A stretch of DNA of 62,281 nt, counting the filler. It is 4 parts of 4 records of this genome, joined end to end, with 100 filler letters (N's around TTAATTAATTAA, not from the genome) between each part and the next. Parts side by side here need not be neighbours in the genome. Positions count along the whole stretch, not along the records: positions 13,735 to 45,373 come from SRR20825019_2672; 3 more parts are not named here. One strand, given 5' to 3'. Each line of letters opens with the position of its first letter. Position 1 is the first letter of the stretch. Made by a program: the position numbers and the translations under genes. The notes under the pieces are model-generated. The model was not told where the DNA came from. It saw nothing but the letters and a program-made list of their open reading frames with translations, and made no database searches. Positions 24,171 to 48,565 of this stretch are shown one piece after another.

Positions 24171-24173
24171 GGT

Positions 24174-26660: not shown

Positions 26661-26681
26661 GTGCTCTATCCGGATACTAAA

Positions 26682-28685: not shown

Positions 28686-28738
28686 GGGACACCTCCTACT
28701 CGCCAATTCGATTCCCAGCGGACTGGCGGAAGTAAGAT

Positions 28739-28771
28739 GATCTGCGCGGTGGGGGCGCTACCGCGCAGATC
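28739..28771 (-). terminator. Intra-operon hairpin (mRNA stabiliser or partial terminator)
   Basis: GATCTGCGCGGT-N9-ACCGCGCAGATC, a 12-bp stem just downstream of the repeat-protein gene. Confidence 0.6.
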
Positions 28772-28795
28772 TTTGCAAGCGTTGGGGGCGCTCGC

Positions 28796-30007
28796 TTATG
28801 CGTCGTCGGTGCTTGCGTCGTTGTTCATGTGGTTGTTGCCACCAACCACCGTCGCGTCGACTGCGTTCTGCTGCAGGTTGGCACCAAGCACGACTTCCAT
28901 GTTGAAGGCCGAACCGCTCACCGCTGCACTGGCATCGGCCATGTTGCTGGCGGTCGAGTTGTTGCTGGCATCACCTTCAAAGTCGTTGCCGTTGGCGTCA
29001 GCATCGTCAGCATATGCATAGGCGTTGTAGGTGCCGTTGGCATTGTTCTGAACATTGCTCAGCGTGTCGTTGTCGACAATGTCGGCCACCTGGCTGATCG
29101 CGAAACCAGTGTCGCCGCCGCCGCCCGAGAAGGCGCCATTGAAGACGTTCTCGAAGTTGACATCGTCACCTGGATCGAATTCGAGCGTGCCGCTGTTGAT
29201 GAACAGATTGTCCATGGTGGCGGAGCCGATATCGAGGTCGGCGAAGTCATCATCGGAGTTGAACGAGTTCGTAGCGTCATCGTCCGAGCTGTTGAACGAG
29301 TCCTCGATTTCGACATCCACATCCAGATCAACATCCACGTCGGTGTCAGTTGAGCTGTCAGTATTGGTCGAGTTGTCGTTCATCGAGTTATTGACGGACT
29401 TATTGTTCGCCACATCTTCAATGTGCGCATCGAGATCGACATCGGTGTCGGTATCGTTGTCCTGAGAATTGTCATTGAAGGAGTTGGTGTTACCCGAATC
29501 CTCAATTTCAACTTCGATGTCGTCGATGGTTGTAGAGCTATCCGTCGAGTTGTCGTTGTTGGAGTTCGTGTCCGAGTTATCGTTCAGCGAGTCGGCCATG
29601 GCGAAGGCCGATGATTGATCCCGGTTATCGGAATTGTCGTTGTTCGAGTTGGTGTCCGAATAGTCGTTCAGAGAATCTTCGATTTCAACATCGACGTCTG
29701 TCGAGTTGTCGGAATTGTCATTCAGAGAATCCTCGATTTCAACATCGACGTCAGTGTCTGTCGAGTTGTCATTATTCGAATTGGTATCCGAATTGTCGTT
29801 CAGGGAATCCTCGATTTCGACATCCAGGTCAGTGTCTGTCGAATTGTCGTTGTTGGAGTTGGTGTCCGAGTTATCGTTCCCGGAGTCATCCACGTCGATA
29901 TCGTTGCCGGAATTCGTATTTCCGGAATCTTCAATTTCCAGCTCGATATCGTCGATGTTGGTGGAATTGTCAGTGGCATTGCCATTGTTGTTGAAGTCGT
30001 CAGCCAT
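28796..30007 (-). CDS. Asn/Asp/Ser-rich tandem-repeat protein (403 aa), putative major T1SS-secreted structural subunit
   Basis: GAGGAG RBS; about 9 imperfect DNSDTNSNNDNSTDTDVDVEIEDSLN repeats; one Lys and one Arg; no Cys or Trp; no signal peptide. Confidence 0.8.
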   Translation of the reverse strand: MADDFNNNGNATDNSTNIDDIELEIEDSGNTNSGNDIDVDDSGNDNSDTNSNNDNSTDTDLDVEIEDSLNDNSDTNSNNDNSTDTDVDVEIEDSLNDNSDNSTDVDVEIEDSLNDYSDTNSNNDNSDNRDQSSAFAMADSLNDNSDTNSNNDNSTDSSTTIDDIEVEIEDSGNTNSFNDNSQDNDTDTDVDLDAHIEDVANNKSVNNSMNDNSTNTDSSTDTDVDVDLDVDVEIEDSFNSSDDDATNSFNSDDDFADLDIGSATMDNLFINSGTLEFDPGDDVNFENVFNGAFSGGGGDTGFAISQVADIVDNDTLSNVQNNANGTYNAYAYADDADANGNDFEGDASNNSTASNMADASAAVSGSAFNMEVVLGANLQQNAVDATVVGGNNHMNNDASTDDA

Positions 30008-30555
30008 AGTCACTCTCCTCAATGAAAAATAATGGCTGAGCTACCAAGACCTCCTGTCATCTTGAATGGAGGCATATTTGGGGGCTCATGACCTGCAAGG
30101 CATACGCGAGATACACGGGCTACTGGTGCTGCACGCAAAAACTGATCAACACCGTCCAGTCCAGAACTCAATTACCAAGCACGACGCGGCATTTGCTGCA
30201 TCGCAGTTTCAAAGTATTGCTGGACGAAAGGCGAAGTATAGTTGCCACTTCAGGCTAGGCTGAAGGGCCCAATAGTAATCTTATCGACTTAGGACATGTG
30301 TTCGGTGCGCGGAGGAGCTAGATCGTTTCCAATCCCCTGTACGGGGGAGAAACCGCACCAGGAACTCCATCGAAAGGTTGATTTTGGCCAGCCCGAAGGG
30401 GTTAGAGATCAATCTTTTGCATTAGTCTCGCCGGGGAATGAATCACGCCAGAGTCACGCCCGCGGTGTTAACGTTTTGTCAACCTTGGGAGCGATGGTGC
30501 CAAGCACAACTGGGGACAGGCGTTCACAGTAATCGCAAGGTGAGGGAGTGGTAAA

Positions 30556-31410
30556 GTGCGTGAAAACCTCTATGACGGTCTACGCAGTCCGCGTCAGATC
30601 GAAGATCGGCCAATAAAATCCGGCACACTTCGGCTTGTGTTTGTTGCCCCACAACAAGCCATATACCAATGCCTTAGCAGTGCATTACAGGACCATTTTC
30701 GCGATGCGGCGGTTTTTCTAGTCGACCGGATCGATGATAGCAGTGATCCGGATCATAGTGTCGGGCTGGTGCTGCTCGGCGCAGGCGCCCGGGTGATCAG
30801 CGTAGATTTCATCGAGCAATGCCGCCGGCGCTTTCCCAATGCGGCCATTGCGGTCGCCGTCGATAATGGCCTGCCGGTCGTGGACCCGCAGCTGACCGAG
30901 CAGCGACTCATTCAGGGAATCCTGCCCACGTCCCTGCCGCTCGATGTCTGGTTCGCGCTGATGCGGCTGGTCATGGCCGGCGGTGAATATCTGCCACATG
31001 GCGATGGCGCCGCATCGGGCCATTTCGAGCCGGTGCATCGGAGCGCGCCGGGCGCGCTTCCGCTGACGCCGGCCAGCCAGGCACCAGCGCCCCGGCAAAG
31101 ACTGGCCGCCGAAATTGCGGTGCAGCAGAGCGACCGGGTCCAGGGTGAGCTGGAAAACGGCCTGGATACGCTGACGGCGCGGGAGCGGGAGATACTCACT
31201 CTTGTGTCGGAAGGGTATCAAAACAAGCTGATTGCCGATCGGATGGCCTTGTCGGAACATACCGTCAAGGCGCATGTGCACAATCTGATCGCCAAGCTTC
31301 GGGTGACCAACCGCACCCAGGCGGCCGCCTATCTGCACGAACACCGGGTCGATAAGAGCGCCCTTAACACTGGATATGGTGACCGCCGTCGGGCCACCGC
31401 CCTGGGGTGA
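30556..31410 (+). CDS. LuxR/NarL-type regulator with degenerate (pseudo-)receiver domain
   Basis: C-terminal LTAREREIL.LV.EGYQNK.IA..M.LSEHTVKAHV..L..KL...NRTQAA; the N-terminal REC-like region lacks the conserved acidic and Lys residues. Confidence 0.9.
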   Translation: MRENLYDGLRSPRQIEDRPIKSGTLRLVFVAPQQAIYQCLSSALQDHFRDAAVFLVDRIDDSSDPDHSVGLVLLGAGARVISVDFIEQCRRRFPNAAIAVAVDNGLPVVDPQLTEQRLIQGILPTSLPLDVWFALMRLVMAGGEYLPHGDGAASGHFEPVHRSAPGALPLTPASQAPAPRQRLAAEIAVQQSDRVQGELENGLDTLTAREREILTLVSEGYQNKLIADRMALSEHTVKAHVHNLIAKLRVTNRTQAAAYLHEHRVDKSALNTGYGDRRRATALG

Positions 31411-31898
31411 ATGCCATGCCCAGCCTGGACAAGGTGCTCCAGCAGGTCGGTCAGTTGAACTATGTGTGGACCAATACGGAAAGCCTGTTCATCTACCTGA
31501 TCGCCCACCTGGCCGGAACGTCCAAGGACGCTGCGGTCATCATATTCCTGACGCTGAACACCACGCGGGCGCGACTGGACCTGCTTGACAGGTTGGCCAA
31601 ATTGCCGGCAACGCCGCCAGAGACCAGGGCGGCGGTGCTGGACCTGACCGAGCGCCTCAAGAAAGAGTCCAAGGTCCGGAACAAATACAATCATTGCATC
31701 TACTCATTCGACTCCAATGGCGAATTGAGCGGGACGCAATTGATGCGCATTGTCGAGTTTGACGATGCGCTCAAATATGGCAAGTCCGAAGCGCTGGACG
31801 ACAGGGAGTTTGAACGGGTTCAGGCCGCCATCCAGGCGATTACATCGGTCAATCGGGATTTGTGGGCGTTCTTTGCGGCCAGCGGAATCAAGCCCTGA
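31407..31898 (+). CDS. Hypothetical alpha-helical protein, translationally coupled to the LuxR gene
   Basis: GTGA overlap with the LuxR stop; natural-looking 163-aa protein; alternative start ATG 31416. Confidence 0.75.
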   Translation: MNAMPSLDKVLQQVGQLNYVWTNTESLFIYLIAHLAGTSKDAAVIIFLTLNTTRARLDLLDRLAKLPATPPETRAAVLDLTERLKKESKVRNKYNHCIYSFDSNGELSGTQLMRIVEFDDALKYGKSEALDDREFERVQAAIQAITSVNRDLWAFFAASGIKP

Positions 31899-32042
31899 AT
31901 TGATCAAAAGTTTGCATGGATTGAACAAATAACCGTGAGCGGCGGATGGCCCAGGCGTAAGTTGTACAATGTATGTTCTTGTTAGGGTAAGATCAGCAGT
32001 TCTCGTACAGAACATTGCTGCGTAGAGGGACGGAGGGCGCAG

Positions 32043-32792
32043 ATGGGTATTCAAGCGCCGCACCACACAACAATAAGGCTGCTTGGCCCCTGTTGCCTGC
32101 TTGTGGGCAACAATCTGGTCCAGGGCGTTCCTGCGAGTTTTTTCCGGATCGCGGCCTATCTGATCCTCTCCACCCCCGAACAGGTGCAGGCGCGCAGCCG
32201 ATTGGCGGCACTGTTCTGGCCCAATGCGGATGACGGCAAGGCGGCAGCCAATCTACGCCAGGCTGTTGCCCGAATACGGCATGTCCAGGAACAGCATGGA
32301 TTCACTCTGATCCAGGCCAATGTCTCGACCCTGCACCTGGCCCCTAGCGCTGATGTCTATTGCGACCTGATCGAGATGTCCCGGCATATCGAGGGAGAAG
32401 TCGTGCTCAACCCGCTGCAGCTTTCGCGCATTTATGGTGGCGAGTTGCTGGCCAATCAGGACTCGAGCGGGGAGGAATTCGAGGACTGGTTGTCCTCACG
32501 ACGCAATGAATTGCTGCTGCATGCGGTCGACGGCATTGCCGAGGGATTGCGCCCGGACGTAGTGTTCACCCAGGCCGAGCGCAGCATCTGTGCGCGGCGT
32601 CTGCTCGAACTCGATCCCTATCGGGAAGACGCGGTTTGCGTCTTGATGGAGGAGGCGGCGGAGCGCCGGCACTATGCCAGGGTGAACGAGCTTTACACCG
32701 CCATGCGGAGCGTATTGTCCAACGAGCTGGGCGTCGAACCGAGCGCAGAAACGCGGGCGCTTTATGCCAGTTTGATGGAAACCGTGCGCTGA
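32043..32792 (+). CDS. Stand-alone SARP-like regulator (wHTH + BTAD)
   Basis: IRLLG, R.RLAALFWP....A.ANLRQ, YGGELL, FEDWL..RR, LLELDPYRE and L..ELGVEPS.ET motifs; GGAG RBS. Confidence 0.88.
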   Translation: MGIQAPHHTTIRLLGPCCLLVGNNLVQGVPASFFRIAAYLILSTPEQVQARSRLAALFWPNADDGKAAANLRQAVARIRHVQEQHGFTLIQANVSTLHLAPSADVYCDLIEMSRHIEGEVVLNPLQLSRIYGGELLANQDSSGEEFEDWLSSRRNELLLHAVDGIAEGLRPDVVFTQAERSICARRLLELDPYREDAVCVLMEEAAERRHYARVNELYTAMRSVLSNELGVEPSAETRALYASLMETVR

Positions 32793-32808: not shown

Positions 32809-33939
32809 TCATGCGAAAGCGGTCAGGATCGCGCCATGCATGGGTTTGGCCTGCCACTCGCGATCATAGGGCAGACCGCGATTGGCCGCGCTGCGCTGGG
32901 TGCGCAGCCAGGAATGGCTGTCGCTCAATCCCCAGGTGCTGACCCCCAGGACATTGTTGAACTGCAAGACGATATCGAGGTAGCGGCGGGTTTCGTCGGC
33001 CACCAGCGCATCGCGCCGCTCGATGGAGAGGCCGGTATTGGCCTCGGCGACATCGAGCTCGGTGATCGCCACCTTGAGCCCCATGCTGCGAATATCGCGC
33101 ATCATGCCATAAATGCCATCGGCATAGACATTGCCTTTGCGCAGATCCAGATGCGCCTGCAGGCCGACCGTGTCGACCGGCGCTCCGCGCGAGCGTAGGC
33201 GTTCAAGCAGCCGCAGCAGCGAGAGGCGGCGCTGGCCTTCATAGCCGCTATCATATTCGAGCCCGTATTCATTGATGACCATGCGGGCACGCGGCGCGCG
33301 GCTCTTGGCCGCCTCCAGGGCCCGCTCGATATAGGCTTCGCCGAAGGCCTTGTAGAACTGGTTCTGCCGCAACCCGTTTCCGCCGTGACTGGGTTCGATC
33401 GGTTCGTTGACCACGTCCCATTCGCGCACCTGGCTGCCATAGCGGCCAATGACCTTTGAAAAATGATCGTCGATCAGCGCCCAGTCACGATCGGACGCCA
33501 GGGCCGAGGCCGCCCAGCGCGGCAGGCTCTTGTGCCAGAGCAGCGTGTGGCCGCGCATGGCCAGGCCATTGCGGGAGGCAAAGCTGGCGAGCTGGTCCAT
33601 CTCACCATAATTGTAATTGCGGCTGGGCGCGATGGAGTCCCATTTCATGGCCCATTCAGGGGTGATGATGGAACAGTCGCGCACAACGCTGGAGCGGAAC
33701 CGGCTGTCGCCCAGGGTCGCGCTCTGAATGGCGGCGCCGAAATAAAGACCGCGCGAGGATGCCGCCGAGCGCAGTGCGCGGACCGGCGGCGGCGTGGCGG
33801 GGCGAGGCTGGCGCGCCTGCGGCTGGTCCGGGGTAGCGGTGACCGATCCGGTCTGCGTCGTGTCGACACGGGCGCAGCCGATCAGCTGCCCGACAGTCAG
33901 CGCAGCGGCTGCACCTATGATGAGATCTCGACGCTTCAC
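32809..33939 (-). CDS. GH10 endo-1,4-beta-xylanase-family protein, predicted Tat-exported lipoprotein
   Basis: GTG 33939 with GGAGG RBS; KRRDLI twin-Arg signal and lipobox LIGC; TPE..MKW, RGHTLLWH, WDVVNEP, INEY, GLQAH, ITELDV and WG..D..SW; both catalytic Glu present. Confidence 0.92.
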   Translation of the reverse strand: MKRRDLIIGAAAALTVGQLIGCARVDTTQTGSVTATPDQPQARQPRPATPPPVRALRSAASSRGLYFGAAIQSATLGDSRFRSSVVRDCSIITPEWAMKWDSIAPSRNYNYGEMDQLASFASRNGLAMRGHTLLWHKSLPRWAASALASDRDWALIDDHFSKVIGRYGSQVREWDVVNEPIEPSHGGNGLRQNQFYKAFGEAYIERALEAAKSRAPRARMVINEYGLEYDSGYEGQRRLSLLRLLERLRSRGAPVDTVGLQAHLDLRKGNVYADGIYGMMRDIRSMGLKVAITELDVAEANTGLSIERRDALVADETRRYLDIVLQFNNVLGVSTWGLSDSHSWLRTQRSAANRGLPYDREWQAKPMHGAILTAFA

Positions 33940-34153
33940 TGGTGCCTCCCCGAATCGAACACCGACCAACCCTGCCAATAGAAAAATGAAGCAAGGACCG
34001 GAACGCGGCAATTAGACAGAACTATCTAGATCGTTGTATTAGTAGCACCATTTCAAATCAAAAGTTAGACTATCCGCTAACAGAGTCATTTGATGCGGGA
34101 GAGGTTCTGCAGAAAGCTTTGTGGTACAGCAACTTTGTTAGTGGTGAGTCGAG

Positions 34154-34792
34154 ATGCACAAGTTATCACAAGTAGTAAACACGAGAATATTGGGCATTTC
34201 TACTGCCCTAACACTTATGGCGGCACTGCCCGCTGCGGCCGAATCGCTGGTCGTTATATCCATGGCTGGAGAGGCCTATGACGGCCCACCTAGCTTTGAT
34301 CTTTTGATCGATGACAAGGTGATTGGCAGCGGCACGCTGCGCATGGCGATCGAAACCGAAGCCGATGGGCGCCTGTTTACCAAACCGCGCCCCAGCTCGT
34401 TCCTGGAAGAGTTTTCCTTCACGGTCTCCGATGACCTGCTGACCCCGGACGCTGAAATCAGCCTGGTGCTGACCAATGACAAGTTTACCCGCATGGACGG
34501 CGCCGGCGAGGACGGGGTGCTCGACCGCAACCTGTTCATCGACTTCGTGCGGGTCAACGACATCGAGGTGACGTCAGCCGATATGGTGCTGATCCATGAT
34601 GGCGATGTGGTGCAATATAACTACCAGGCGGGACTGTTGCCGATCTATGAGGCAGGGTTTCGTGCGGTGGCGCGGGCGCCCGAGGGCGGCTGGCTGAATG
34701 GCGCCGTTGCCCGGGTCGGTATGCTCGATATCCCCTTGCCCTTGCCGCGACCGAAGGATCTGACGCTCGACGTCGGCCTGGTGCAGCAATGA
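34154..34792 (+). CDS. Exported carbohydrate-binding protein (CBM60-like Ca-dependent xylan-binding module)
   Basis: Sec signal (..ALPAAA/ES); [15 protein letters not shown] and DRNLFID.V.VN motifs; ATGA overlap with uxs. Confidence 0.7.
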
Positions 34793-35871
34793 GCCCGCAG
34801 CATAAAGTGACCAGGCCGGTGCGCCAGATCCGCACCGGCCAGGGGACAGTTACGCCCAAATCCATCTGCGTAACCGGTGGGGCGGGGTTCCTTGGTTCGC
34901 ATCTGTGTGCCCGCCTGATTGGCGAGGGACACCGGGTCACCTGCATCGACAATTTTCACACCGGCCGTCCGGCCAATGTGGCGGCCCTGGCGCGCAGCAA
35001 CCGCTTCGAATTGGTCGAGCACGACGTGATGGACACCCTGCCCGAGCAATTGCCGGCCTTTGACGAAATCTACAATCTCGCCTGCCCGGCCTCCCCGGTG
35101 CATTATCAGAGCGATCCGGTCCGAACCGCGCTGATCTGCGCGGAGGGTGCCGCCAATGTGCTTTATCGTGCCCAGCGAGACGGCGCCCGGGTGATGCATG
35201 CATCAACCTCGGAAGTTTATGGCGACCCAGAAGTCCACCCGCAGCGCGAGGACTATTGCGGCAACGTCAACACGGTCGGCCCGCGCTCCTGCTATGACGA
35301 AGGCAAGCGTTTTGCCGAGACGCTGCTCACCGACTTCGGCCGCCAAAGCGGTGTGGTGGTCAAGATTGTGCGCATCTTCAATACCTATGGCCCCCGCATG
35401 CAGCCTGATGACGGTCGCGTGGTCTCCAATTTCATCCTCCAGGCCCTGCGCGGCGAGGACATCACGATCTATGGCCTGGGCCAGCAGACCCGCTCGTTCT
35501 GTTACGTCGATGATCTGATCGAGGGCTTTGTCCGCCTCATGGCGTCAGGTCCGGAAGTCGATGGACCCGTCAATATCGGCAATCCCACCGAGATTACTGT
35601 GGGCGAGTTGGCGCGCATCATCATCGAGATGACTGGTTCACCGTCAAAGCTCGTTCATCTGCCCCTGCCGGTCGATGATCCGCGCCGCCGGCGTCCCGAC
35701 ATCACCCGTGCCAGCACCCTGCTCGGCTGGGGGCCGCGCGTGCCCCTGACCGAAGGGCTGGAAAAAACCATCCGCTTCTTTGCCAGCCTCAACCAGACGC
35801 TGGCGCCAGCAACGCGCCGTGGACCGGTCTTTGCACCGGCCACCCAGAGTGAGCCCTTCGTACAAATCTAG
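34789..35871 (+). CDS. uxs: UDP-glucuronate decarboxylase (UDP-xylose synthase)
   Basis: [62 protein letters not shown] and DDP..RRPDI motifs. Confidence 0.95.
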
Positions 35872-35898
35872 TTTTAGTAACAGAGTGAGTGATGAACC

Positions 35899-37329
35899 AT
35901 GCGCCTCATTATTATCGGTTCGGGTTATGTCGGTTTGGTTTCGGGCGCATGCCTGGCGGAGCTGGGACACCACGTCATGTGCGTGGACAATGATGCAAAC
36001 AAGGTCGAGCAGCTTCAGGCCGGCCAGATCCCCATCTATGAACCGCAGCTCTCCGAGATGATCACCCGAAATGTGGCGCAGGGACGCCTGGGCTTCACGA
36101 GCCGGTTGCCGGCGCTGGGCAAGGAGATACATGCGGTCATGATCGCGGTTGGCACGCCGCCCCAGACCAATGGCAGCGCTGATCTCAGCGCCATTTTCGC
36201 GGTCGCCGAGGAAGTTGCCTCCAAGGCCATCCATCCGCAAATGGTGATCATCAAATCCACGGTACCGGTCGGCACTGGCGACAGCGTGCAGGCGTTGATG
36301 CACAAGGCGCGACCCGAATTGCACTTCTCGGTGATCTCCAATCCCGAATTCCTGCGCGAAGGCTCGGCCATTGATGACTTCATGGCGCCGGACCGCATCG
36401 TGGTGGGCGCCGGAGACGAAACCGCGCGCAATACGCTGCGGGCGCTCTATGCGCCGCTGGAGCAGACCGGAACGCAGGTGGTCTGCATGGGCCGGCGGGA
36501 TGCCGAACTGGTCAAATGCGCCGCCAATGCGTTCCTGGCCACCAAGATCGCCTTCATCAATGAAATGGCGGATCTGTGCGAAGCGGTCGGTGCTGATGTC
36601 GACCAGGTGGCCCATGGCATCGGGCTGGACGAGCGGATCGGCGCGGCTTTCCTGCAGGCCGGACCGGGCTATGGCGGGTCGTGCTTCCCCAAGGACACGA
36701 CAGCGCTGCAGGCCATTGCCCAGGAGCATGGGATCAATCTGCGACTGGTCGAAACCGTCATTGCCTCCAATGAGGCGCGCAAGCGCGCGATGGGCCGCCG
36801 GGTGTCGAGGGCGCTGCATGGCGACTTGTCCGGGCGGGTCGTGGCGGTGCTGGGCCTGACCTTCAAGCCCAATACGGACGACATGCGTGATTCACCGTCC
36901 CTGGCCCTGATCGATGCCCTGCAACGGGCCGGTGCAAAGGTGCAAGTGTTTGATCCGCAAGGCATGAATCGGGCCCGTGCGCATCTGCCCGATGTCCATT
37001 TTGCGGACAATGCCTATCTCTGTGCCGAAGGGGCGGATTGCACCGTTCTGGCCACCCATTGGCCCGAATTTGCCACGCTGGACGCCGAGCGGCTGGCGCG
37101 GCTGGTGCGTAATAAGGTCTTGGTGGACCTGCGCAATTTCCTCGATCAACAGGCCTTTCTCAATGCCGGTTTTGCGGTCCACGCCATTGGGCGATCGCCG
37201 CAGCAGCCCCGGCGCCATAACGTGGTCGCGGTGCCCCAGCTCAGCGCCCGCACCCCGTCCAGGAGGGCCTACATGAACGGGACAGCGCACCGTCCGAGCC
37301 GGGCCCTGCAAGATGGCATGAGCGGCTAG
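35899..37329 (+). CDS. ugd: UDP-glucose 6-dehydrogenase
   Basis: GSGYVGL, IAVGTP, KSTVPVG, NPEFLREG, GYGGSCFPKD and GLTFKPNTDDMR motifs. Confidence 0.95.
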   Translation: MRLIIIGSGYVGLVSGACLAELGHHVMCVDNDANKVEQLQAGQIPIYEPQLSEMITRNVAQGRLGFTSRLPALGKEIHAVMIAVGTPPQTNGSADLSAIFAVAEEVASKAIHPQMVIIKSTVPVGTGDSVQALMHKARPELHFSVISNPEFLREGSAIDDFMAPDRIVVGAGDETARNTLRALYAPLEQTGTQVVCMGRRDAELVKCAANAFLATKIAFINEMADLCEAVGADVDQVAHGIGLDERIGAAFLQAGPGYGGSCFPKDTTALQAIAQEHGINLRLVETVIASNEARKRAMGRRVSRALHGDLSGRVVAVLGLTFKPNTDDMRDSPSLALIDALQRAGAKVQVFDPQGMNRARAHLPDVHFADNAYLCAEGADCTVLATHWPEFATLDAERLARLVRNKVLVDLRNFLDQQAFLNAGFAVHAIGRSPQQPRRHNVVAVPQLSARTPSRRAYMNGTAHRPSRALQDGMSG

Positions 37330-37356
37330 AACCAGCGTCGCGAGAGGGGGCAGGTT

Positions 37357-38859
37357 ATGGAAACCAGCGAGACAGTGAGCCTATTGCTTGTCGGTGCCTT
37401 CTGCACGGTCCAGATCGCCTATGCCCTCTCGCAATGGCTTGATCTTTATTTCTTCACCCGCCCGGTCAACTGGGTGGACCCGAATGCGGCGCGCGGCAGG
37501 CCCCCGGAAGACTATCCCTATATCGTGCTGTTCTACCCGGTGCTGCGCGAACTCGAATCCACCATGCGCACCACATTCCTGAGCCTGGCGCAGCTCGAAT
37601 ATCCCAAGGACAAGTTCAGCGTCGTGGCCATTCCCAATGCCGATGACGCCTTCACCGTGCGCTCGCTGCGGCGGCTGCAGAAGGAATTCCCCTTCCTCCA
37701 GATTATTGAAGTGCCGGCCACTTCGCACAAATCCTGGCTGGTGGTGTGGAAGGCCTGGGATCGCTGCAAGAAGGCCTATTGGTGGCATGAGGGCAAGTTC
37801 GCCCAGAACCGCAATCTGCCGCCCAAGAAGACGCGGCAATTGATCTATGCCTTCTACCAGATCGCCGAGCGGGTGATGACCACCCAGGACTTCCTGGTCA
37901 ACTATATCGACGCGGACAGTTGCCCGCCCAGCGACCATTTCCTGGCCGCGGCCGCCGGCATGGGGCAGTATGACGTGCTCCAGGCGCAGAACATCGCGGG
38001 CAATCTCAACGCGAGCTGGGCGGCGAGCTGGCATGCCTTTGACCACATGGCCTGGGACGGCTCGAAATATCCGCATCTCTCGGCCAATGGGAAACACCCC
38101 TATTGGGTGCTGGGCAAAGGGCTGTTCTTCCGCGCCTCGGACCTGATCACGCTGGGCGGCTTCCACCCCTGGCTGACGATCGAGGACCCGGAAGTGGGCA
38201 TGCGCTTCTGGACCAATGGCAAGCGGCTGGGGGTCATTGAAAACCCCTTGATCGAGGAAGTTCCGCTGACCTTTGCGCATGGCATTACCCAGCGCAAGCG
38301 CTGGGTGGCGGGGTTCTTCCAGAGCCTGACCTACCCGCTCAAGGCCATTGGCATGCCCTGGCCGGCCCGCTTCAAGGCGTGGCTGAATTTCCTGCCATGC
38401 CTGTCGCTCTCGCTCAACTCCGTCGGTCTTCCGCTGGGGATCTGGGCCACCTGGTCGGCCTGGACCGGACAGAACATATTGCCCGATTGGGCCATCGTGC
38501 TGTCCCTGGCCAATCTGGTGGTCTTCACCGCGTCGATGAGCGCGCTTTATGTGCGCACCTGGCGCCGCGCGGCGCTGGTCCTGCCCAGGCGCAAGGACCG
38601 TCTACGCTATCTGTGGCGGGTCAATCCGGTCTTTATCCTGGTGTGGTGGCTGATCTGGCTCGTTCCGCTCTGGATCGGCTTCCGCATGTTCCTGCGCAAT
38701 GAGGGCCTGGTATGGGAACGCACCGAGAAGACCGATGCCAACCACGATCTGGTCCGCGTCGCGCGAACCAAAAAATCGCACGCAACGACCCGCCCCGCTG
38801 CCGCCGTCAAATCCAACCAGCCCGCCACCATGGAAGCAGGGGCCGAAAAATCCTCATAA
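37357..38859 (+). CDS. Membrane-integrated processive GT2 glycosyltransferase (CESA-like polysaccharide synthase)
   Basis: One N-terminal TM and about three C-terminal TMs; DAD (YIDADS), ED (TIEDP), QRKRW and terminal WERTEK motifs. Confidence 0.88.
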   Translation: METSETVSLLLVGAFCTVQIAYALSQWLDLYFFTRPVNWVDPNAARGRPPEDYPYIVLFYPVLRELESTMRTTFLSLAQLEYPKDKFSVVAIPNADDAFTVRSLRRLQKEFPFLQIIEVPATSHKSWLVVWKAWDRCKKAYWWHEGKFAQNRNLPPKKTRQLIYAFYQIAERVMTTQDFLVNYIDADSCPPSDHFLAAAAGMGQYDVLQAQNIAGNLNASWAASWHAFDHMAWDGSKYPHLSANGKHPYWVLGKGLFFRASDLITLGGFHPWLTIEDPEVGMRFWTNGKRLGVIENPLIEEVPLTFAHGITQRKRWVAGFFQSLTYPLKAIGMPWPARFKAWLNFLPCLSLSLNSVGLPLGIWATWSAWTGQNILPDWAIVLSLANLVVFTASMSALYVRTWRRAALVLPRRKDRLRYLWRVNPVFILVWWLIWLVPLWIGFRMFLRNEGLVWERTEKTDANHDLVRVARTKKSHATTRPAAAVKSNQPATMEAGAEKSS

Positions 38860-38886
38860 GACGCGTAATGAGTAAGGAGTAACACA

Positions 38887-40026
38887 ATGACGAAAGGACA
38901 CGTTCTGGTCACCGGGGGTGCCGGCTTTATCGGATCTCATCTGGTGGACATGTTGCTGGCCCGGGGGTTCGACGTCACCGTCCTCGATTGCCTGCTGGAC
39001 CAGGTACATGGCGACGCCGAGCGCGATGCCGAGGGTTGGCCGGTCTATCTCAATCCCGCCGCCCGCCGCATCAAAGGCAATATTCTCGATGACGGCGTGT
39101 TCGAGAGCGCCCTTAGCGGCATTACCCATCTGGCCCACCTCGCCGCTTCGGTCGGGGTTGGGCAGAGCATGACCAATATTGTCGATTACACCCGCAACAA
39201 CACCATGGCCGCGGCGATCATGCTCGAAGTGCTGTCGCGTACCGAGCACAGCGTCGAGCGCATGACGGTGGCCTCATCCATGTCGATCTATGGCGAAGGG
39301 CAATATGTCGAGGCCGAGACTGGCCGCCCGGTCATGCCCGATATGCGCGATCACGAACAGTTGCAGGCTCATCACTGGGAGCTGAACAAGGACGGCGCGA
39401 CCCTGCTGCCTGTGCCGACCGACGAGAACAAACTGCTCCAGCCCGCCTCGATCTATGCGGTCAACAAGCGCGACCATGAGGAGATGTTCCTCTCGGTCGG
39501 GCGGGCCCTCAAGATTCCCACCGTGGCGCTCAGGCTGTTCAATGCCTATGGCTCGCGCCAGGCGCTGAGCAATCCCTATACCGGGGTTGCCGCCATCTTC
39601 ATTTCACGCCTGCTCAACGACCAGCCACCCATCATCTTCGAGGATGGGGAGCAGAAGCGTGATTTCGTGCATGTGCTCGATGTGGCCAATGCCTTTGCCA
39701 CCGTGCTCGAAAGCGATCTGGCGGTGTGGGAAACGTGCAATGTCGGCAGCGGGCAGGCGCGGACCGTCAACGAGATTGCGACCACACTGGCTCGGCTGTT
39801 GCGCAAGAATATCGCGCCGACCATTCTCAACCAGTACCGGGTCGGGGATATCCGCCATTGCTTTGCCGATATCAGCAAGCTCGAAAAGCTGTTCGGCATC
39901 CGGCCGACGCAGGAGTTCGAGGCGGGGATGGCGCAGTTGATCGAATGGGTGCAGACGGTGAACCGCCCGCAGGACCGCTCGCAGCAATCGCTGGCCGAGC
40001 TGACCCGCAGCCGATTGGTGGTTTGA
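38887..40026 (+). CDS. NAD-dependent nucleotide-sugar epimerase/dehydratase (extended SDR, WbiB-like)
   Basis: GGAGFIG, SSMSIYGEG, YAVNK, NPYTGV and FEDG.Q.RDFVHV motifs. Confidence 0.88.
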   Translation: MTKGHVLVTGGAGFIGSHLVDMLLARGFDVTVLDCLLDQVHGDAERDAEGWPVYLNPAARRIKGNILDDGVFESALSGITHLAHLAASVGVGQSMTNIVDYTRNNTMAAAIMLEVLSRTEHSVERMTVASSMSIYGEGQYVEAETGRPVMPDMRDHEQLQAHHWELNKDGATLLPVPTDENKLLQPASIYAVNKRDHEEMFLSVGRALKIPTVALRLFNAYGSRQALSNPYTGVAAIFISRLLNDQPPIIFEDGEQKRDFVHVLDVANAFATVLESDLAVWETCNVGSGQARTVNEIATTLARLLRKNIAPTILNQYRVGDIRHCFADISKLEKLFGIRPTQEFEAGMAQLIEWVQTVNRPQDRSQQSLAELTRSRLVV

Positions 40027-40033: not shown

Positions 40034-40978
40034 TCAGCCCAGCCGGGGGACTTCGGCCAAAAGCGTCCGCCAACGGGCTCCCTCACCCGCCGTCTGCAAT
40101 TGAGCGGCGGCCAGGGCGCTGTCGATGGCGGGACGGGACACCGCCAAACCGGGCAATTGCGCGGTCATGGCCTCGAATATGGCCGGGTGCAGCGTCAGCA
40201 CACCCCCGATGACCGCAACTGGATGCGCGCCGGCCCGGGCCTGCATGGCCTGGGCAAGCAAGGCCAGTTCGGCCCCTGCCTGGCGCAAGATCTCAAGCGC
40301 CAAATCATCGCCCAGTTCGGCGGCCCTGGCGACACCGACGGCCAGAGCCCCGATGCGCCCCCGGTCGCCGGCATAGACATATTGGCGCACATCGTGCCAA
40401 CCCGACCCGCCCACCAGGGCAAAGACCTGATCGGCTAGGATTTGCCGGCTGGCAAACGACCCCGTGTGATCGAGCGTACGATAGAGCCGGTCGAGCGCCT
40501 TGAGCGCAATCCAGCTTCCTGAGCCGGCATCGTCAATGAGAATGCCCCTGCCCCCGACCCTTACGACATCGCCGGCCGCGCCGACATGGATGCCGATGGA
40601 TCCGGTGCCGGCGGAGACCAGATGCCCGGCCCCGGGCTGGAAATGGGCCGCATAGGCCAGAATAATGTCATCCATGAGCAGGATGGCATTGCGCGGCAGG
40701 CCGAGTGCCTGTTGGGCAAGACCAGCAATCTCATCGGCAGCGGCGGCACCGAAGCCGGTCAGGCCGCCGGAGAGGGTTTTGGCCGCAAGGCCATTATGAG
40801 CGATCTCGTCGGCCAGTTGGGTGAACACTGCGGCGAGCCGGGTACGTTCGGCCGGGTTGAACACATGAGCCGTGGCGCCGCCGAGCTGACCGCGCGCCAG
40901 CACGGCGCCCGCCGGATCGCAGGCCACCCAGCGGCTGGCCGTGCCGCCCACGTCGAGCCCGAGATGAACCTGGCTCAC
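40034..40978 (-). CDS. BadF/BadG-type N-acetylhexosamine kinase
   Basis: GLDVGGT, AGTGS and GG.G.LIDD.GSG.WI motifs; GTGA overlap with nanE. Confidence 0.85.
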   Translation of the reverse strand: MSQVHLGLDVGGTASRWVACDPAGAVLARGQLGGATAHVFNPAERTRLAAVFTQLADEIAHNGLAAKTLSGGLTGFGAAAADEIAGLAQQALGLPRNAILLMDDIILAYAAHFQPGAGHLVSAGTGSIGIHVGAAGDVVRVGGRGILIDDAGSGSWIALKALDRLYRTLDHTGSFASRQILADQVFALVGGSGWHDVRQYVYAGDRGRIGALAVGVARAAELGDDLALEILRQAGAELALLAQAMQARAGAHPVAVIGGVLTLHPAIFEAMTAQLPGLAVSRPAIDSALAAAQLQTAGEGARWRTLLAEVPRLG

Positions 40979-41640
40979 CTGGGCACGCCCTCTTTGACAA
41001 ACATGGCGGTGATTTCGCGCGGATTGGTGATCATGGTGCCCACAACAACGGCATGCGCCCCGGCGGCAAAGGCTTGGGCGACAAGCTCGGGCCGATTGTA
41101 GCGCCCTTCGGCTACCACCGGAACATCAAGCCGTGTGGCCAGGGCCTCGAGCAGGGCCAGGTCCGGCTCTTCCGGCTTGGGCTGGGTCTTTTCGGTATAG
41201 CCCGAAAGGGTCGTGGCGACATAATCGGCGCCCCAATCGGCCGCCTTCAAGCCTTCGTCCAGCGTCGAAACATCGGCAAAAACCTCGGCGCCGATCTCTT
41301 CCTGAATGCGCCGAATGAGAACGCTGGGATGTTCGCCATGGCGCGGGCGCTCGGTGCAATCGAGCGCAACAATCCCTGCGCCTGATGCATAGATCGTGGC
41401 AGCGGCCTCGAAATTGGGGGTGATATAGACCGGGACGTCGTCCGCAAACACCTTGTGAATACCGATGACCGGCAGCCCGGCCGCCTGTACGGCCGCAACA
41501 TCCGCGGGACCATTGGCGCGGATGCCCACGGCGCCGCCATCGCGTGCCGCCAGCGCCATGGCGCCCATGAACCGGGGACCGTGCAATGGATTATCGGCTC
41601 GCGCCTGGCAGGAGACGATGAGGCCCGCGGGCAGCTTCAC
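40975..41640 (-). CDS. nanE: N-acetylmannosamine-6-phosphate 2-epimerase
   Basis: LIVSCQA, IRA.G, P.IGI.K, YITP, TTLSGYT, AEGRY and VVG..IT.P motifs; GTG 41640. Confidence 0.92.
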   Translation of the reverse strand: MKLPAGLIVSCQARADNPLHGPRFMGAMALAARDGGAVGIRANGPADVAAVQAAGLPVIGIHKVFADDVPVYITPNFEAAATIYASGAGIVALDCTERPRHGEHPSVLIRRIQEEIGAEVFADVSTLDEGLKAADWGADYVATTLSGYTEKTQPKPEEPDLALLEALATRLDVPVVAEGRYNRPELVAQAFAAGAHAVVVGTMITNPREITAMFVKEGVPR

Positions 41641-42509
41641 TTGACGGCCCCGGAGGTCATGCCGGCGATGAACTGCCGCGACAGGATAATGTAGATCAGG
41701 ATGATCGGCGCGGCAGACAGGGTCAGGCCCGAAAACAGCACGCCCCAATCGGTGGTGTATTCGCCCATGAACGTCGTCAGGCCCTGCGGCAGGGTCTTGA
41801 GATTATCGTTCTGGATGAAGACCAGCGGGAAGAAGAAGTCGTTCCAGATCGGCACGACATTCTGGATGCCGGCAATCACCATGGCGGGCCGCACCAATGG
41901 CAGCATGATCGACCACATGATGCGCGCTTCGGAGGCGCCGTCCATGCGGGCGGCGTCTTCGAGTTCATTGGGCAGGGTGCGGATGAAACCGGTCATGATG
42001 AAGACCGTCGTGGGCAGGCCCATGGCGGTATAGACGAAAATCAGCGAGAGCTGGTTATTGAGGATGGAGAGGTCGCGCATCAGCATGAAGAGCGGAATGA
42101 TGGCGAGCTTCAATGGCAGGGTCAGCCCGGCCAGGAAGAACATCAGGATGAAGTTCGAGCCGGTGAAGGCGTAGCGGCCAATGGCATAGGCGGCCATGGT
42201 GCCCAGGGTCAGGATCAGCGCCATGGAGGCGCCGGTGACGACAAAGGAATTGAGCAGGTAGCGCAGGAAATTGGTCTGCGTCCAGATTTTCACGAAATTG
42301 CCCACTTGCGTGAAATCGGGAATGCCGAAGGGCGACTGGAAGATCTGCGGCGTGGTCTTGAAGGCCGAAAACACCATGATGACGATGGGCGCCAGCATAA
42401 TGATGGTGTTGGCGATCAGGATGATCTGCAACAGCCCGTCGCGACCCAGCGTGCCCAGAATGCCCCTGCGGTCCTGATAGGCCATGGCGGTCGTGGTCGC
42501 GGTGCTCAT
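41637..42509 (-). CDS. Carbohydrate ABC permease
   Basis: EAA motif LPNELEDAARMDGAS; WNDFF.PL. Confidence 0.92.
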   Translation of the reverse strand: MSTATTTAMAYQDRRGILGTLGRDGLLQIILIANTIIMLAPIVIMVFSAFKTTPQIFQSPFGIPDFTQVGNFVKIWTQTNFLRYLLNSFVVTGASMALILTLGTMAAYAIGRYAFTGSNFILMFFLAGLTLPLKLAIIPLFMLMRDLSILNNQLSLIFVYTAMGLPTTVFIMTGFIRTLPNELEDAARMDGASEARIMWSIMLPLVRPAMVIAGIQNVVPIWNDFFFPLVFIQNDNLKTLPQGLTTFMGEYTTDWGVLFSGLTLSAAPIILIYIILSRQFIAGMTSGAVK

Positions 42510-43426
42510 ATCTGAATCTCCCGGGCGCGCAGGCGCACGGTGATGACCGTGGCGATGGCGGCGATGAAGAGGAAAATCAGCACGGCCAGGGCCGAACCGA
42601 GGCCGAAATCCTGCTGGCCGGCAGACACATTGCCAAAGGCCGTGCGGTAGAAATAGAGCCCCAGCACATCGGTCGAGCCAAAGGGCGACCCGTCCAGCCC
42701 ACCCATGATGTAGGGCAGCTCGAACCAGTTGAAGGCGCCCACAAACAGCAGGGTAAACACGATGGTGGCGCTGGGTGCCACGAGCGGCCAGACGATCTGG
42801 GTGATCTTGACCCATTCGCTTTCGGTTTCCATGCGCACGGCGTCGAGGATTTCCCCCGGAATGCGCTGCATGCCGGCCAGAAAGACCAGGGTGGGGAAGC
42901 CCACCATGTGCCAGGCCTGGGCGGCAATGATGCTCCAGAGCGCGGTGCCGCTCTGCCCCAGCCAGGGTTGCGCCAGCCCGTCGAGCCCGAGGCCCCGGAG
43001 GCTGAGGTTCACCACGCCGAACAGCGGGTGATAGAACAGCTTGAACAGATACGCGACGATGATGGTGGAGAGCACCACGGGCAGAAACACCGCAATGCGG
43101 TGGAAGCGAGCACCGGGCAATTCGCGCCAGAGCGCATAGGCCAGGATGAAGCCCAGCCCGTTCTGCAGCACCATCAGCGCGAAAAAGACAATGATGTTGT
43201 TCTTGAAGGCGTTGAGCGTCCAGCTCCGATAGGGCTCGACGAACAGCACGGTGTGGAAATTTTCAAGGCCCACGAAATCGAGGCGCTTCAGGCCCTGCCA
43301 GTCAAAGAAGGCATAGGCGAAGGCCGAAATGATCGGATAGACGATGAACAGCGCCACGAAGGCCAGTGGCGGCACGATCAGCGCAGTAATCCAGAGGCCG
43401 CGGCCTGTCATCCGAAGTTTGGGCAT
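42506..43426 (-). CDS. Carbohydrate ABC permease
   Basis: FVGLENF and FLAGMQRIP motifs; hydrophobic. Confidence 0.92.
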   Translation of the reverse strand: MPKLRMTGRGLWITALIVPPLAFVALFIVYPIISAFAYAFFDWQGLKRLDFVGLENFHTVLFVEPYRSWTLNAFKNNIIVFFALMVLQNGLGFILAYALWRELPGARFHRIAVFLPVVLSTIIVAYLFKLFYHPLFGVVNLSLRGLGLDGLAQPWLGQSGTALWSIIAAQAWHMVGFPTLVFLAGMQRIPGEILDAVRMETESEWVKITQIVWPLVAPSATIVFTLLFVGAFNWFELPYIMGGLDGSPFGSTDVLGLYFYRTAFGNVSAGQQDFGLGSALAVLIFLFIAAIATVITVRLRAREIQI

Positions 43427-43458
43427 TGGGGCTCGCTGTGGCTCTGTTGATCCGGCTT

Positions 43459-43585
43459 CACCCCACCCTCATTCCCTCCCCATCGAGGGGCGGGAGGCAC
43501 AGGGCCGAAACCTTGGTGTTCATCGTCTCCCTTCCCCTTGCAGGGAGGGGTCAAAGGACGGGGGTGGCAGGGACATGCCACCCCC
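43459..43585. repeat. Composite intergenic palindromic element (two inverted CCCTCCCC/GGGGAGGG hairpins) plus a terminator-like hairpin
   Basis: CACCCCACCCTCATTCCCTCCCCATCGAGGGGCGGGAGG...CTCCCTTCCCCTTGCAGGGAGGGGTCAAAGGACGGGGGTG, overlapping GGGGGTGGCA-N6-TGCCACCCCC. Confidence 0.6.
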
Positions 43586-43604
43586 AAGGCGAAGGGAGAC
43601 CGCC

Positions 43605-44846
43605 TTAGTTCTGGAAGGGCTCGTACCAGGCAGCAAGGCCGGTGGTGAGCACTTCACCAATGGCTTCGGGCGTGGTTTCACCGGCAAACAGCTTCTGCAT
43701 TTCGCTCTGGATCAGCACCGAGCCGGATGGCTCGCCATAGCGGAAATGCGCCAGCATCAGATAGGGGATCGAGGACTGATTCAGCTCGGCCACCTCGCCC
43801 AGCAGCGGGTTGTCGAAGGTGACGCCCGGCACGGTCGAGATGTTGTTGAGCGTGTTGGCGAAGGCCTGACCGAATTCCTGGCTGGCCAGGTAGTTGACGA
43901 AGGTGATCGCGGCGTCCTTGTTCGGGGTGGCGGCGTTCACCGCATAGCCACCGTCGAAATAGACGGCCACCAGCTTTTCGTCCTCGGCAGTTTCACCGGG
44001 CGCAGCGAACATGCCCAGCTCGATGTCGGGGTTCTGGGCCATGAAATTGGCCAGCTCGTAGGAGCCGCCGATGAACATGCCGGCCAGGCCCGAGGAGAAG
44101 AGCTGCTGGGCGGAGGGGTAGTCGAGACCGATGAAGCCGTCGGGGAAGTAGTCGGCGGCGACGTCGGCAACAGCGGCCAGTGCCGAGGTGAAGCGCTCGT
44201 CGGTGAAGTCAGCTTCGCCGGCGATCAGTTCCTCGTAGAAGTCCTGACCCATCAGCGAGGAGCCGAGGCCAAAGGTGACAGTTTCGTTCTGCCAGGCGGT
44301 TGCCGTGCCATTGGCGAAAGGAATGACGCCAGCGTCCTTGAGCGACTGGCTCAGGGCTTCCAGATCCGCCCAGCTCTGCGGCTCTTCGAGGCCATTGGCA
44401 TCGAAAATCGCCTTGTTGTAGATGACGAACTGGGTCTGGCTGGCGAAGGGCACAGCATAGATCTGGCCGTCCGCACGCATGCTTTCGGCCGCCAGCGAGG
44501 CCGCGGAGAAATCGGCCAAGGCCGGTACGGTGTCGGTGCTCAGGGGCTCGAGATAGCCGGCCGAAGCCACGTTCTCGAGGCCACCATAGGCGCGCACCAT
44601 CGCCAGGTCCGGCCCAGTGCCACCGGCCAGGGCGGTGGACAGAATTGTGTTGTAATTGGTGGCTTCGAAGGTTTCGAAGTTCACCGTAATACCCGGATTG
44701 GCTGCCTCGAACGTCTCGATGAACTGTTCATAGGCCGCGCGGTCTTCCTGGCGCCAGCTCCACAGGGTCAGGTCCTGGGCGAATGCGGGGGCAGCGACGA
44801 GCACGGCTCCCAGGGCCGCGCCGATGCGTATCAGATTGGTCTTCAT
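43605..44846 (-). CDS. Carbohydrate ABC substrate-binding protein
   Basis: Sec signal; FE..NPGI.V, GPD and DG.IYAVP motifs. Confidence 0.92.
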   Translation of the reverse strand: MKTNLIRIGAALGAVLVAAPAFAQDLTLWSWRQEDRAAYEQFIETFEAANPGITVNFETFEATNYNTILSTALAGGTGPDLAMVRAYGGLENVASAGYLEPLSTDTVPALADFSAASLAAESMRADGQIYAVPFASQTQFVIYNKAIFDANGLEEPQSWADLEALSQSLKDAGVIPFANGTATAWQNETVTFGLGSSLMGQDFYEELIAGEADFTDERFTSALAAVADVAADYFPDGFIGLDYPSAQQLFSSGLAGMFIGGSYELANFMAQNPDIELGMFAAPGETAEDEKLVAVYFDGGYAVNAATPNKDAAITFVNYLASQEFGQAFANTLNNISTVPGVTFDNPLLGEVAELNQSSIPYLMLAHFRYGEPSGSVLIQSEMQKLFAGETTPEAIGEVLTTGLAAWYEPFQN

Positions 44847-44899
44847 GGAGTTCCCTCTCCTTGCGAGTTCTCTTTGGTGGTCGTGTCCCGGCGCCCGGT

Positions 44900-45373
44900 T
44901 CAGGGCGTCAGCCGCCGGCCATCCTCGGCGGAAAAGAAATGCGCGGCGCCCGGCTCGACCGTTACGGTCACCGTTTCGTCCGGCGCAAATAGATCATTGG
45001 GGGTGGTGCGGGCCGAGAGCAGCGTGCCATCGGCCAGCCGGGCATAAACATAGGCGTTGTCGCCCAGATATTCGGTATAAACGACCTCGGCAGCAAAGCC
45101 CTCGGCCTTGCCGCGGGTGAGGTGCACCGCATCGGGCCGCAAGCCCAGCTTGAGCGCCTTTGCATCCGGCACGGCGCCGACAGACACGGCCCCGCCATTG
45201 GCGACACCAAGGCGGTCCCCGTCGCGGGTCACATCGACCAGCGTCATGCGCGGCGAGCCGATGAAGCTGGCAACGAAGGTATTGGCCGGCGTCTCATAGA
45301 GTTCACGCGGCGAGCCGACCTGTTCGATACGGCCATTGTTCATCACCACGATCTTGTCGGCCAGGGTCATGGC
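44900..45373 (-). CDS. Sugar ABC ATP-binding protein (MalK-like), 5' end cut by linker
   Basis: [37 protein letters not shown]-like C-terminus. Confidence 0.92.
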
Positions 45374-45473
45374 NNNNNNNNNNNNNNNNNNNNNNNNNNN
45401 NNNNNNNNNNNNNNNNNTTAATTAATTAANNNNNNNNNNNNNNNNNNNNNNNNNNNNNNNNNNNNNNNNNNNN
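45374..45473. other. Artificial contig linker
   Basis: N44-TTAATTAATTAA-N44. Confidence 0.99.
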
Positions 45474-46171: not shown

Positions 46172-46181
46172 GTCTTTAACC

Positions 46182-48527: not shown

Positions 48528-48565
48528 TCGCTGATCAATATGCGCCGATGCGGACGGGGCCGGAT

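Follow-up and report, generated by a model that had tools for sequence, protein, structure and literature searches.

An apparently uncharacterised GT2 synthase-type locus with UDP-pentose genes and its own GH10 hydrolase in Alphaproteobacteria and Vulcanimicrobiota

To our knowledge, few synthase-dependent bacterial exopolysaccharides (EPS) have been described, and among them only the arabinose-containing polymer of Sinorhizobium meliloti (APS) uses pentoses. APS is produced by the uxs1-uxe-apsS locus (PMC12560781, PMC7902896), where the genes follow the order uxs1-uxe-apsS-apsH1-apsE-apsH2 (PMC7902896) and uxs1 is placed by coordinates (PMC13438883); the locus contains genes for a 621-amino-acid (aa) glycosyltransferase, GalE, GH26 and DUF995 proteins. 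Clusters of the sfz/sfb and xag-like kinds provide precedents for combining a family 2 glycosyltransferase (GT2) with a family 10 glycoside hydrolase (GH10) (PMC8250860, PMC4643136, PMC3609779), Sfz4 being a predicted GH10 (PMC8250860). Here, we analyse a six-gene locus combining both kinds of components in a window (the whole stretch of DNA analysed, 62,281 nucleotides) in which N spacers at 6397-6496, 13635-13734 and 45374-45473 separate the joined contigs; all six genes lie inside the single piece 13735-45373 (SRR20825019_2672). The six genes represent a conserved system across two phyla, centred on a tight GT2 clade, and this synthase-type locus is apparently uncharacterised.

Conservation of the locus

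A preliminary description of this DNA had proposed six genes, and all six open reading frames were found where it had placed them, with the expected Pfam families and motifs. They are listed below with the number of loci, out of 66, in which each partner accompanies the GT2.

32809..33939, minus strand: GH10 glycoside hydrolase, twin-arginine (Tat) lipoprotein; PF00331 and catalytic Glu pair; 56/66 loci
34154..34792, plus strand: exported protein with the fold of family 60 carbohydrate-binding modules (CBM60), accessory and lineage-restricted; fold and PF16841; 15/66 loci, 3/19 GT2 groups
34789..35871, plus strand: Uxs, UDP-glucuronate decarboxylase (UDP-xylose synthase); 65% identical to S. 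meliloti Uxs1; 51/66 loci
35899..37329, plus strand: Ugd, UDP-glucose 6-dehydrogenase; Pfam domains and motifs; 46/66 loci
37357..38859, plus strand: membrane GT2 of its own clade, putative synthase; fold resembling BcsA and hyaluronan synthase (HAS), D..DxD..D, QRKRW and WxxTxK
38887..40026, plus strand: extended short-chain dehydrogenase/reductase (SDR) of the C4-epimerase type; S131-Y190-K194; 59/66 loci at an identity of at least 60%

In the Pfam scan, the GT2 matched Glyco_trans_2_3, Ugd matched all three UDPG_MGDP_dh domains, and the Epimerase domain was found in both Uxs and the SDR. The motifs ASTSEVYG and YDEGK are present in Uxs, PEFLREG and GGSCFPKD in Ugd, and DAD185-187, IED275-277 and QRKRW312-316 in the GT2.

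The 66 loci were obtained from a scan of species-representative genomes (GT2 identity of 55-95%, flanks of up to 10 kb per side) and belong to Devosia, Aureimonas, Aquamicrobium, Reyranella, Caulobacteraceae, Sphingomonadaceae and Vulcanimicrobiota/Eremiobacterota. Since cultured strains carry the locus (Devosia indica, D. subaequoris, Reyranella soli, Brevundimonas bullata and Aureimonas ureilytica), it is directly testable. The SDR is the most constant partner of the GT2, and Uxs was counted at an identity of at least 45%. Genes of the BcsS family (PF17036) were found in 31/66 loci and a type I secretion system (T1SS) block in 22/66; a MetA-type barrel gene replaces BcsS in 4 loci, and a BcsB-like gene occurs in 2/66. 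The BcsS, MetA-type and BcsB-like genes were seen in other genomes only and not in the window. The 52 loci with long flanks contained SDR in 47 cases, GH10 in 47, Uxs in 43, Ugd in 38 and BcsS in 26. When the loci were collapsed into 19 groups at 75% GT2 identity, the corresponding numbers were 16 for the SDR, 15 for GH10, 14 for Uxs, 8 for Ugd, 7 for BcsS, 5 for T1SS and 3 for CBM60.

A similar composition was observed in metagenomes, where 80 of 203 matches were kept, some of them representing organisms already present among the genome loci. The 36 metagenome loci with at least 2.5 kb on each side contained GH10 (29), Uxs (28), SDR (27, with a further 5 loci in which SDR identity was below 55%), Ugd (20) and BcsS (11), and the gene order was reshuffled into several arrangements.

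The association was also assessed in 151 genomes of the Devosia family, to which the genome of locus L005 belongs; these genomes are kin and not independent, and the identity cut-offs were taken from the gap in the results. The GT2 is present in 7/151 genomes, and GH10 (at least 51% identity) and SDR (at least 68%) orthologues occur in exactly these seven, i.e., in 7/7 GT2-bearing genomes versus 0/144 others, which is far above chance. Uxs is present in 7/7 GT2-bearing genomes against a background of 65/151. A search in another family, around genome G001, revealed no orthologue in 161 genomes and gave weak matches only, mostly to GT2s of 600-700 aa. The preliminary description had treated the genes, GH10 included, as one system, and both the synteny in 66 loci of two phyla and the GH10 co-occurrence agree with this.

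Several loci display additional features. Eight of them (L018, L020, L021, L027, L030, L039, L043 and L067) carry two divergent GH10 paralogues each, a possible sign of two linkages or of two roles in trimming. Many Vulcanimicrobiota loci contain two phosphoesterase genes (PF04185) upstream of ugd (21 loci, e.g., L054:4386-7272), possibly reflecting only lineage synteny. In deeper-branching loci, a protein of 173-178 aa with a signal-peptide-like start and no Pfam match is encoded between the SDR and the GT2 (L187:7428-7949, L191:5550-6083 and L179:887-1423). In L163:131-6320 (P0121), a Ser/Thr kinase is fused to the N-terminus of the GT2, and the gene after it encodes a modular GH10 of 903 aa (DUF2341, LamG) in which the canonical Asn is retained.

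The GT2 and the supply of UDP-sugars

In a profile search against 1.84 billion representatives, full-length members of the GT2 family scored above 480 bits and the next full-length relatives at most 170 bits. The family forms a separate long-branch clade (SH-aLRT, the Shimodaira-Hasegawa-like approximate likelihood ratio test, 100), apart from the MshEN-bearing XagB/Sfz2-like proteins and from ApsS, and one named sister protein is haloarchaeal. This tree and the GH10 tree below are quick SH-aLRT trees rooted at the midpoint; the row XagBlike_L078 of the GT2 tree is a wrong-strand open reading frame and is to be disregarded. The phylogenetic comparison outlined in the preliminary description thus places the GT2 in its own clade with respect to ApsS and, as far as XagB is represented by XagB-like stand-ins, to XagB. 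The Pfam scan detected neither a PilZ nor an MshEN domain in the GT2, and its score against the CelA model was 23.5 bits versus a cut-off of 699 bits. In a literature search that covered few subscription journals, we found no description of this clade and no bacterial GT2 xylan synthase; the papers returned for such a synthase dealt with plants, with algae or with glycosyltransferases in general.

The AlphaFold model of the GT2 is of high quality (predicted local distance difference test 92, predicted template modelling score 0.89), and BcsA and hyaluronan synthases rank first in its Foldseek search. VIA-align gave a Z of 24.8 for BcsA (root-mean-square deviation (rmsd) of 3.7, 366 aligned residues) and of 21.3 for viral HAS (4.4, 371). 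Residues D185, D187, D277, Q312, R315 and W316 are invariant in 133/133 GT2 sequences, as is W453-x-x-T456-x-K458, which resembles the FxVTxK gating loop of BcsA (PMC8892547). As modelled, the GT2 displays the processive-synthase features D,D,D,QxxRW, a gating-loop motif and a BcsA/HAS fold, and it looks like a polymerising synthase.

Which donor sugars, then, does the locus provide? Ugd and Uxs convert UDP-glucose via UDP-glucuronate to UDP-xylose. The preliminary description had listed the SDR but not used it in its argument; no other partner is as constant, and its C4-epimerase-type site suggests that UDP-xylose may undergo a further conversion. The SDR gene lies directly 3' of the GT2 gene in the window and in most loci, and the median pairwise identity of the SDRs is 71%. 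The protein possesses GxxGxxG and the Ser-Tyr-Lys triad but not the Glu that Uxs has, a pattern that is invariant in a 64-row set except for one truncated row, and its catalytic Ser is followed by Met. Its sequence matches in the PDB include UDP-glucose 4-epimerases, WbpP/WbgU and MoeE5; it may also resemble Burkholderia WbiB, a dTDP-L-rhamnose 4-epimerase. Paralogues of the SDR (40-49% identity) are located within 8.5 kb of a uxs in 14/16 places, and one annotated paralogue sits in a TIGR04290/TIGR04295 cluster. In four Brevundimonas loci, the GT2 is accompanied by a different SDR (42%), which is such a paralogue, and by a different Uxs (54%); this swap reads as independent recruitment of both activities. 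The SDR probably acts on UDP-xylose or its precursor, the linkage to uxs being our sole basis for assigning UDP-xylose as the substrate, and the simplest product would be UDP-L-arabinose, by analogy with Uxe of APS.

The GH10, the CBM60-like protein and neighbouring genes

The preliminary description considered the GH10 catalytically intact, in agreement with its match to PF00331 (253 bits) and the presence of the catalytic residues E203 and E318, which lie in NE and TELD motifs in 65/65 and 66/66 GH10 rows, respectively. The longest open reading frame starts at 34011; the likelier start is a GTG at 33939 with GGAGG upstream, yielding a 376-aa form with a twin-arginine signal and a lipobox. 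The Tat signal occurs in at least 50/64 GH10 rows. The top PDB matches are all xylanases, and the equivalents of E43, H80, W84, H205, W273 and W281 (Cex numbering) are fully kept in the orthologues. N44, Q87 and K47 are kept in 0/64, 0/64 and 39/64 orthologues, respectively, compared with 4/4, 3/4 and 4/4 in four distinct aligned PDB xylanases; among the metagenome GH10 rows, N44 is present in 2/54, and the window GH10 carries W in place of N44 and S in place of Q87. We take N44, Q87, E43, K47 and H80 to be glycone-subsite residues of GH10 xylanases; a search for papers supporting the roles of N44 and Q87 gave none.

The GT2-linked GH10s constitute one clade (66 rows, SH-aLRT 93) in a tree from which two fragments shorter than 280 aa were dropped and which includes no characterised xylanase. 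The 151-genome family sample contains 15 other GH10s, of which 10 were fetched and 7 had their neighbours scanned. Five of the seven are surrounded by EPS genes of the Wzx, Wzy or Wzz type, and two adjoin a CBM60-like gene and a different GT2 of 627 aa with no uxs match. In this family, L106:9716-12654 and L108:2082-9299 hold CBM60-like genes, the 627-aa GT2, a SpoIIE phosphatase, anti-sigma-type genes and their own GH10, without uxs, and this gene set is a second uncharacterised arrangement. The two GH10s nearest to the clade from outside each adjoin a uxs, which suggests that the subgroup acts on pentose-containing polymers; in L104 and L105, which are Wzy/Wzz-type EPS clusters, uxs lies directly beside a GH10 sister to the GT2-linked clade. 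A GH10 that is labelled as a xylanase on a Rhizobium plasmid is part of a flippase/pyruvyl-transferase cluster, and a preprint lists PssW as a GH10 (bioRxiv 10.64898/2026.08.21.746188). Because GH10s occur in such Wzx/Wzy-type clusters, PssW included, a GH10 marks a polymer to be trimmed rather than xylan, and xylan degradation should not be deduced from an 'endo-1,4-beta-xylanase' label on a member of this GH10 group.

The enzyme is best regarded as a putative periplasmic polymer-trimming hydrolase. A role as a feeding xylanase was rejected on the grounds of its co-occurrence with the GT2 and the widespread Tat signal, as the preliminary description had anticipated in placing the GH10 within the system. 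No xylA, xylB or xylosidase family was detected among the window proteins scanned (PF01261 is too broad a family to inform on xylose isomerase), which also matches that description. The neighbours include a BadF-type kinase and NanE, which, together with an ABC sugar transporter, lie downstream at 40034-45370, are present in only 5/66 loci and form an amino-sugar catabolic unit unrelated to the GT2 locus.

The CBM60-like protein scored 24.8 bits against PF16841, below the cut-off of 28.2; 16/16 aligned relatives match this family at E<=0.01, and the two best Foldseek hits of its AlphaFold model are the CBM60 structures 2xhh (E 4e-5) and 2xfd (E 1.6e-4). The earlier CBM60 assignment thus stands for the fold and for the relatives, but not for the protein's own Pfam score; calcium-dependent glycan binding, a CBM60 trait, may apply to it as well. 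The founding CBM60 binds xylans, galactans and cellulose (PMC9107766). According to the preliminary description, the donor supply, the binding module and the hydrolase agree in pointing to xylose; this argument is not supported in view of the loss of N44 and Q87, a broad binding module present in few loci and GH10s in non-xylan EPS clusters, and neither GH10 nor CBM60 was accepted as proof of xylan.

Directly before the locus, at 22836-32792, lies a T1SS block encoding HlyD, PrtD with a long Pro/Ala-rich N-terminus, a 674-aa acidic protein, an Asp/Asn-rich repeat protein, LuxR, a 163-aa hypothetical protein and a BTAD protein. The 674-aa protein occurs in 20/151 family genomes, 13 of them without the GT2, and the block occurs together with BcsS in 0/66 loci. 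A core role of the block in the locus is not supported by these occurrences, and it is a linked but separate module.

The remaining window sequence shows that the underlying assembly is mixed: pieces 1-6396 and 45474-62281 match G001 at 93-98%, and the middle piece was tested at its two ends (13735-20000 and 43000-45373), where identity to Devosia genomes is 89-92%. Two short stretches, 43451-43567 and 45236-45373, have many dispersed copies of 70-85% identity in Devosia genomes; the former is intergenic and may be a repeat element, and the latter lies within an ABC ATPase gene.

Proposed product and comparison with known systems

The explanation that we favour, with about even confidence, is a synthase-dependent system whose exopolysaccharide contains xylose and/or arabinose and which parallels APS in function, with a non-orthologous synthase, epimerase and hydrolase. 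Ugd would form UDP-glucuronate and Uxs would convert it to UDP-xylose, in line with established enzymology and the motifs present; the SDR would epimerise C4, most likely turning UDP-xylose into UDP-L-arabinopyranose. Judging from fold and motifs, the GT2 may polymerise either pentose or both, perhaps together with a hexose, and push the chain across the inner membrane, where the GH10, whose export signal is seen, could trim or clear it in the periplasm. Passage through the outer membrane might proceed via the BcsS-family or MetA-type protein where these are encoded and by another route in Devosia. The cluster thus probably lets some bacteria build and export a polymer of five-carbon sugars, and an arabinose/xylose heteroglycan or an arabinan is a more likely product than plain beta-1,4-xylan. 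The interpretation of the preliminary description survives in part: one conserved system with a tightly linked Uxs is supported, but the inference of xylan is not.

Several observations weigh against the pentose-polymer explanation. The lipid-type mannosyltransferase PcManGT ties with BcsA (Z 23.9, rmsd 4.8, 328 aligned) and, because it scores so near, the fold alone is no proof of processivity. The GT2 model has approximately 4 membrane helices (2-33, 351-369, 377-405 and 424-446), with three hydropathy peaks, which falls short of the six helices that PMC8892547 proposes as a minimal core. GH10 is missing at 10/66 loci, several of them with long flanks. Among the 15 loci without Uxs, 10 genomes carry one elsewhere (at least 50% identity), and Uxs was not found in the other 5 (four metagenome-assembled genomes, and one genome only partly searchable), in which its absence is not shown. 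A protein query found no BcsS in three Devosia genomes and worked in two positive controls; a BcsS family search in Devosia gave no match anywhere, controls included, and is uninformative, and PF13557 had no match in four Devosia genomes. Finally, the SDR is only 24% identical to S. meliloti Uxe.

How do these and the preceding data bear on other products? A xylose-backbone polymer in the wide sense (xylan or arabinoxylan-like, substituted forms counted), made from UDP-xylose by the GT2 as a single enzyme and secreted, with the GH10 retuned, is a tentative possibility that we regard as doubtful. Its narrow form, a plain beta-xylan (1,4 or 1,3) with the GH10 as the matched xylanase, is unlikely: Uxs is adjacent in 51/66 loci, the catalytic residues and the six other equivalents named above are kept in the GH10, the CBM60 fold is confirmed, and L027 and L038 retain GH10s with little or no SDR signal, but the N44, Q87 and K47 pattern departs from that of the PDB xylanases, sister GH10s and PssW belong to Wzx/Wzy clusters, and a homoxylan gives no reason to retain the SDR in 59/66 loci. 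A quite unlikely alternative is that the GT2 exports no polymer at all and instead serves to glycosylate a lipid, to produce a short lipid-linked oligosaccharide or, where the host is Devosia-like, to decorate the acidic T1SS proteins. The small number of membrane helices, the PcManGT score and the T1SS block, adjacent in 22 loci and never found with BcsS, fit this idea, while a chain outside the cytoplasm is implied by the exported endo-type GH10 (56/66) and by the BcsS, MetA and BcsB-like partners, the gating-loop motif shows no variation, and the block occurs without the GT2 in 13/20 genomes, its exclusion with BcsS tracking lineage.

Two further explanations concern the donors. A HAS-like, dual-donor GT2 that alternates xylose with GlcA, or with GalA supplied by the SDR, as the uronic acid seems improbable. 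It would accord with Ugd in 46/66 loci, several of them without Uxs, with hyaluronan synthases among the best fold matches, with MoeE5, which we take to be a UDP-GlcA epimerase, among the SDR matches, and with K254, which is invariant in 133/133 GT2s and corresponds to Ser in BcsA and ApsS and to Thr in XagB-like proteins; uronate-using GT2s presumably carry a basic residue at this position. Against it, the same Lys is found in the majority of the distant sister proteins, one of them without nucleotide-sugar genes nearby, Uxs needs Ugd in any case, and the SDR has Met after its catalytic Ser, where UDP-GlcA epimerases typically have small polar residues. The least probable explanation is a beta-glucan or other hexose polymer made by the GT2, with the UDP-pentoses feeding a side-chain transferase or a glycan encoded elsewhere. 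BcsA is the best sequence and fold match of the GT2, BcsS and BcsB are cellulose-operon families, and loss of Q87 may make room for the C6 of a hexose, as is reportedly suggested by studies of Cex; nevertheless, no second glycosyltransferase is conserved in the locus, and Uxs and the SDR flank the GT2 directly, with identities that track that of the GT2 (Spearman 0.72 and 0.73, calculated from non-independent pairs).

If the pentose-polymer explanation is true, the locus would hold a one-enzyme pentosan synthase, from which the choice of pentose donors by GT2s could be learned and which would offer a simple tool for making hemicellulose-like polymers; if the backbone is xylose, it would represent a GT2 route to xylan independent of plant GT43/GT47 and spread across Alphaproteobacteria and Vulcanimicrobiota. 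The gene context narrows the GT2 donor to UDP-pentoses, and the system's own hydrolase is a diagnostic reagent.

Among the described systems, APS shares the logic of Uxs, a 4-epimerase, one membrane GT2 and a glycoside hydrolase, with Uxs next to the synthase and, at 65% identity to Uxs1, the only orthologous component. The window GT2 is 28% identical to ApsS over 144 aa (profile E 0.033), ApsS falls outside the GT2 clade, the SDR is distant from the GalE-type Uxe, and a GH10 stands in place of the GH26 ApsE. No DUF995 protein (ApsH1/H2) occurs among the six, no CuxR-type AraC regulator is adjacent, and Ugd and BcsS are included in the present system. Orthology to the aps locus was thus rejected, in accordance with the preliminary description, which had not considered the locus a plain aps orthologue; the comparison is one of genes, and a closer likeness in APS chemistry may exist.

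The xagABCD cluster of Xanthomonas and the sfz/sfb bcsB-xagBCD clusters of Zetaproteobacteria/Ferriphaselus likewise unite a GT2 and a GH10, MshEN-GT2s are the nearest named-type bacterial relatives of the window GT2 (profile E 4e-22), and a few of the present loci have a BcsB-like gene 5' of the GT2. In comparisons made with XagB-like stand-ins rather than with Xanthomonas XagB itself, the window GT2 is 22-30% identical, belongs to a separate clade and lacks the N-terminal MshEN (EpsE-like) domain; no XagC-like partner was seen, and dedicated Ugd, Uxs and SDR genes are present. BcsA-BcsB-BcsZ and hyaluronan synthase resemble the present system in fold (Z of 24.8 and 21), D,D,D,QxxRW and the gating-loop motif, and the cellulose system also in its co-encoded hydrolase and in BcsS, found at 31/66 loci. 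The GT2 differs from BcsA and HAS in its low identity (10-18%), approximately 4 transmembrane helices and lack of PilZ, and the locus differs from the cellulose system in that BcsB is usually missing (BcsB-like in 2/66), the hydrolase is a GH10 instead of a GH8, and pentose-nucleotide genes are present. With the PssW-type GH10s of Wzx/Wzy clusters, the locus shares an exported GH10 encoded within a polysaccharide synthesis cluster; unlike them, with no flippase, Wzy or priming transferase alongside, the present GH10 is paired with a single GT2 and forms a clade of its own.

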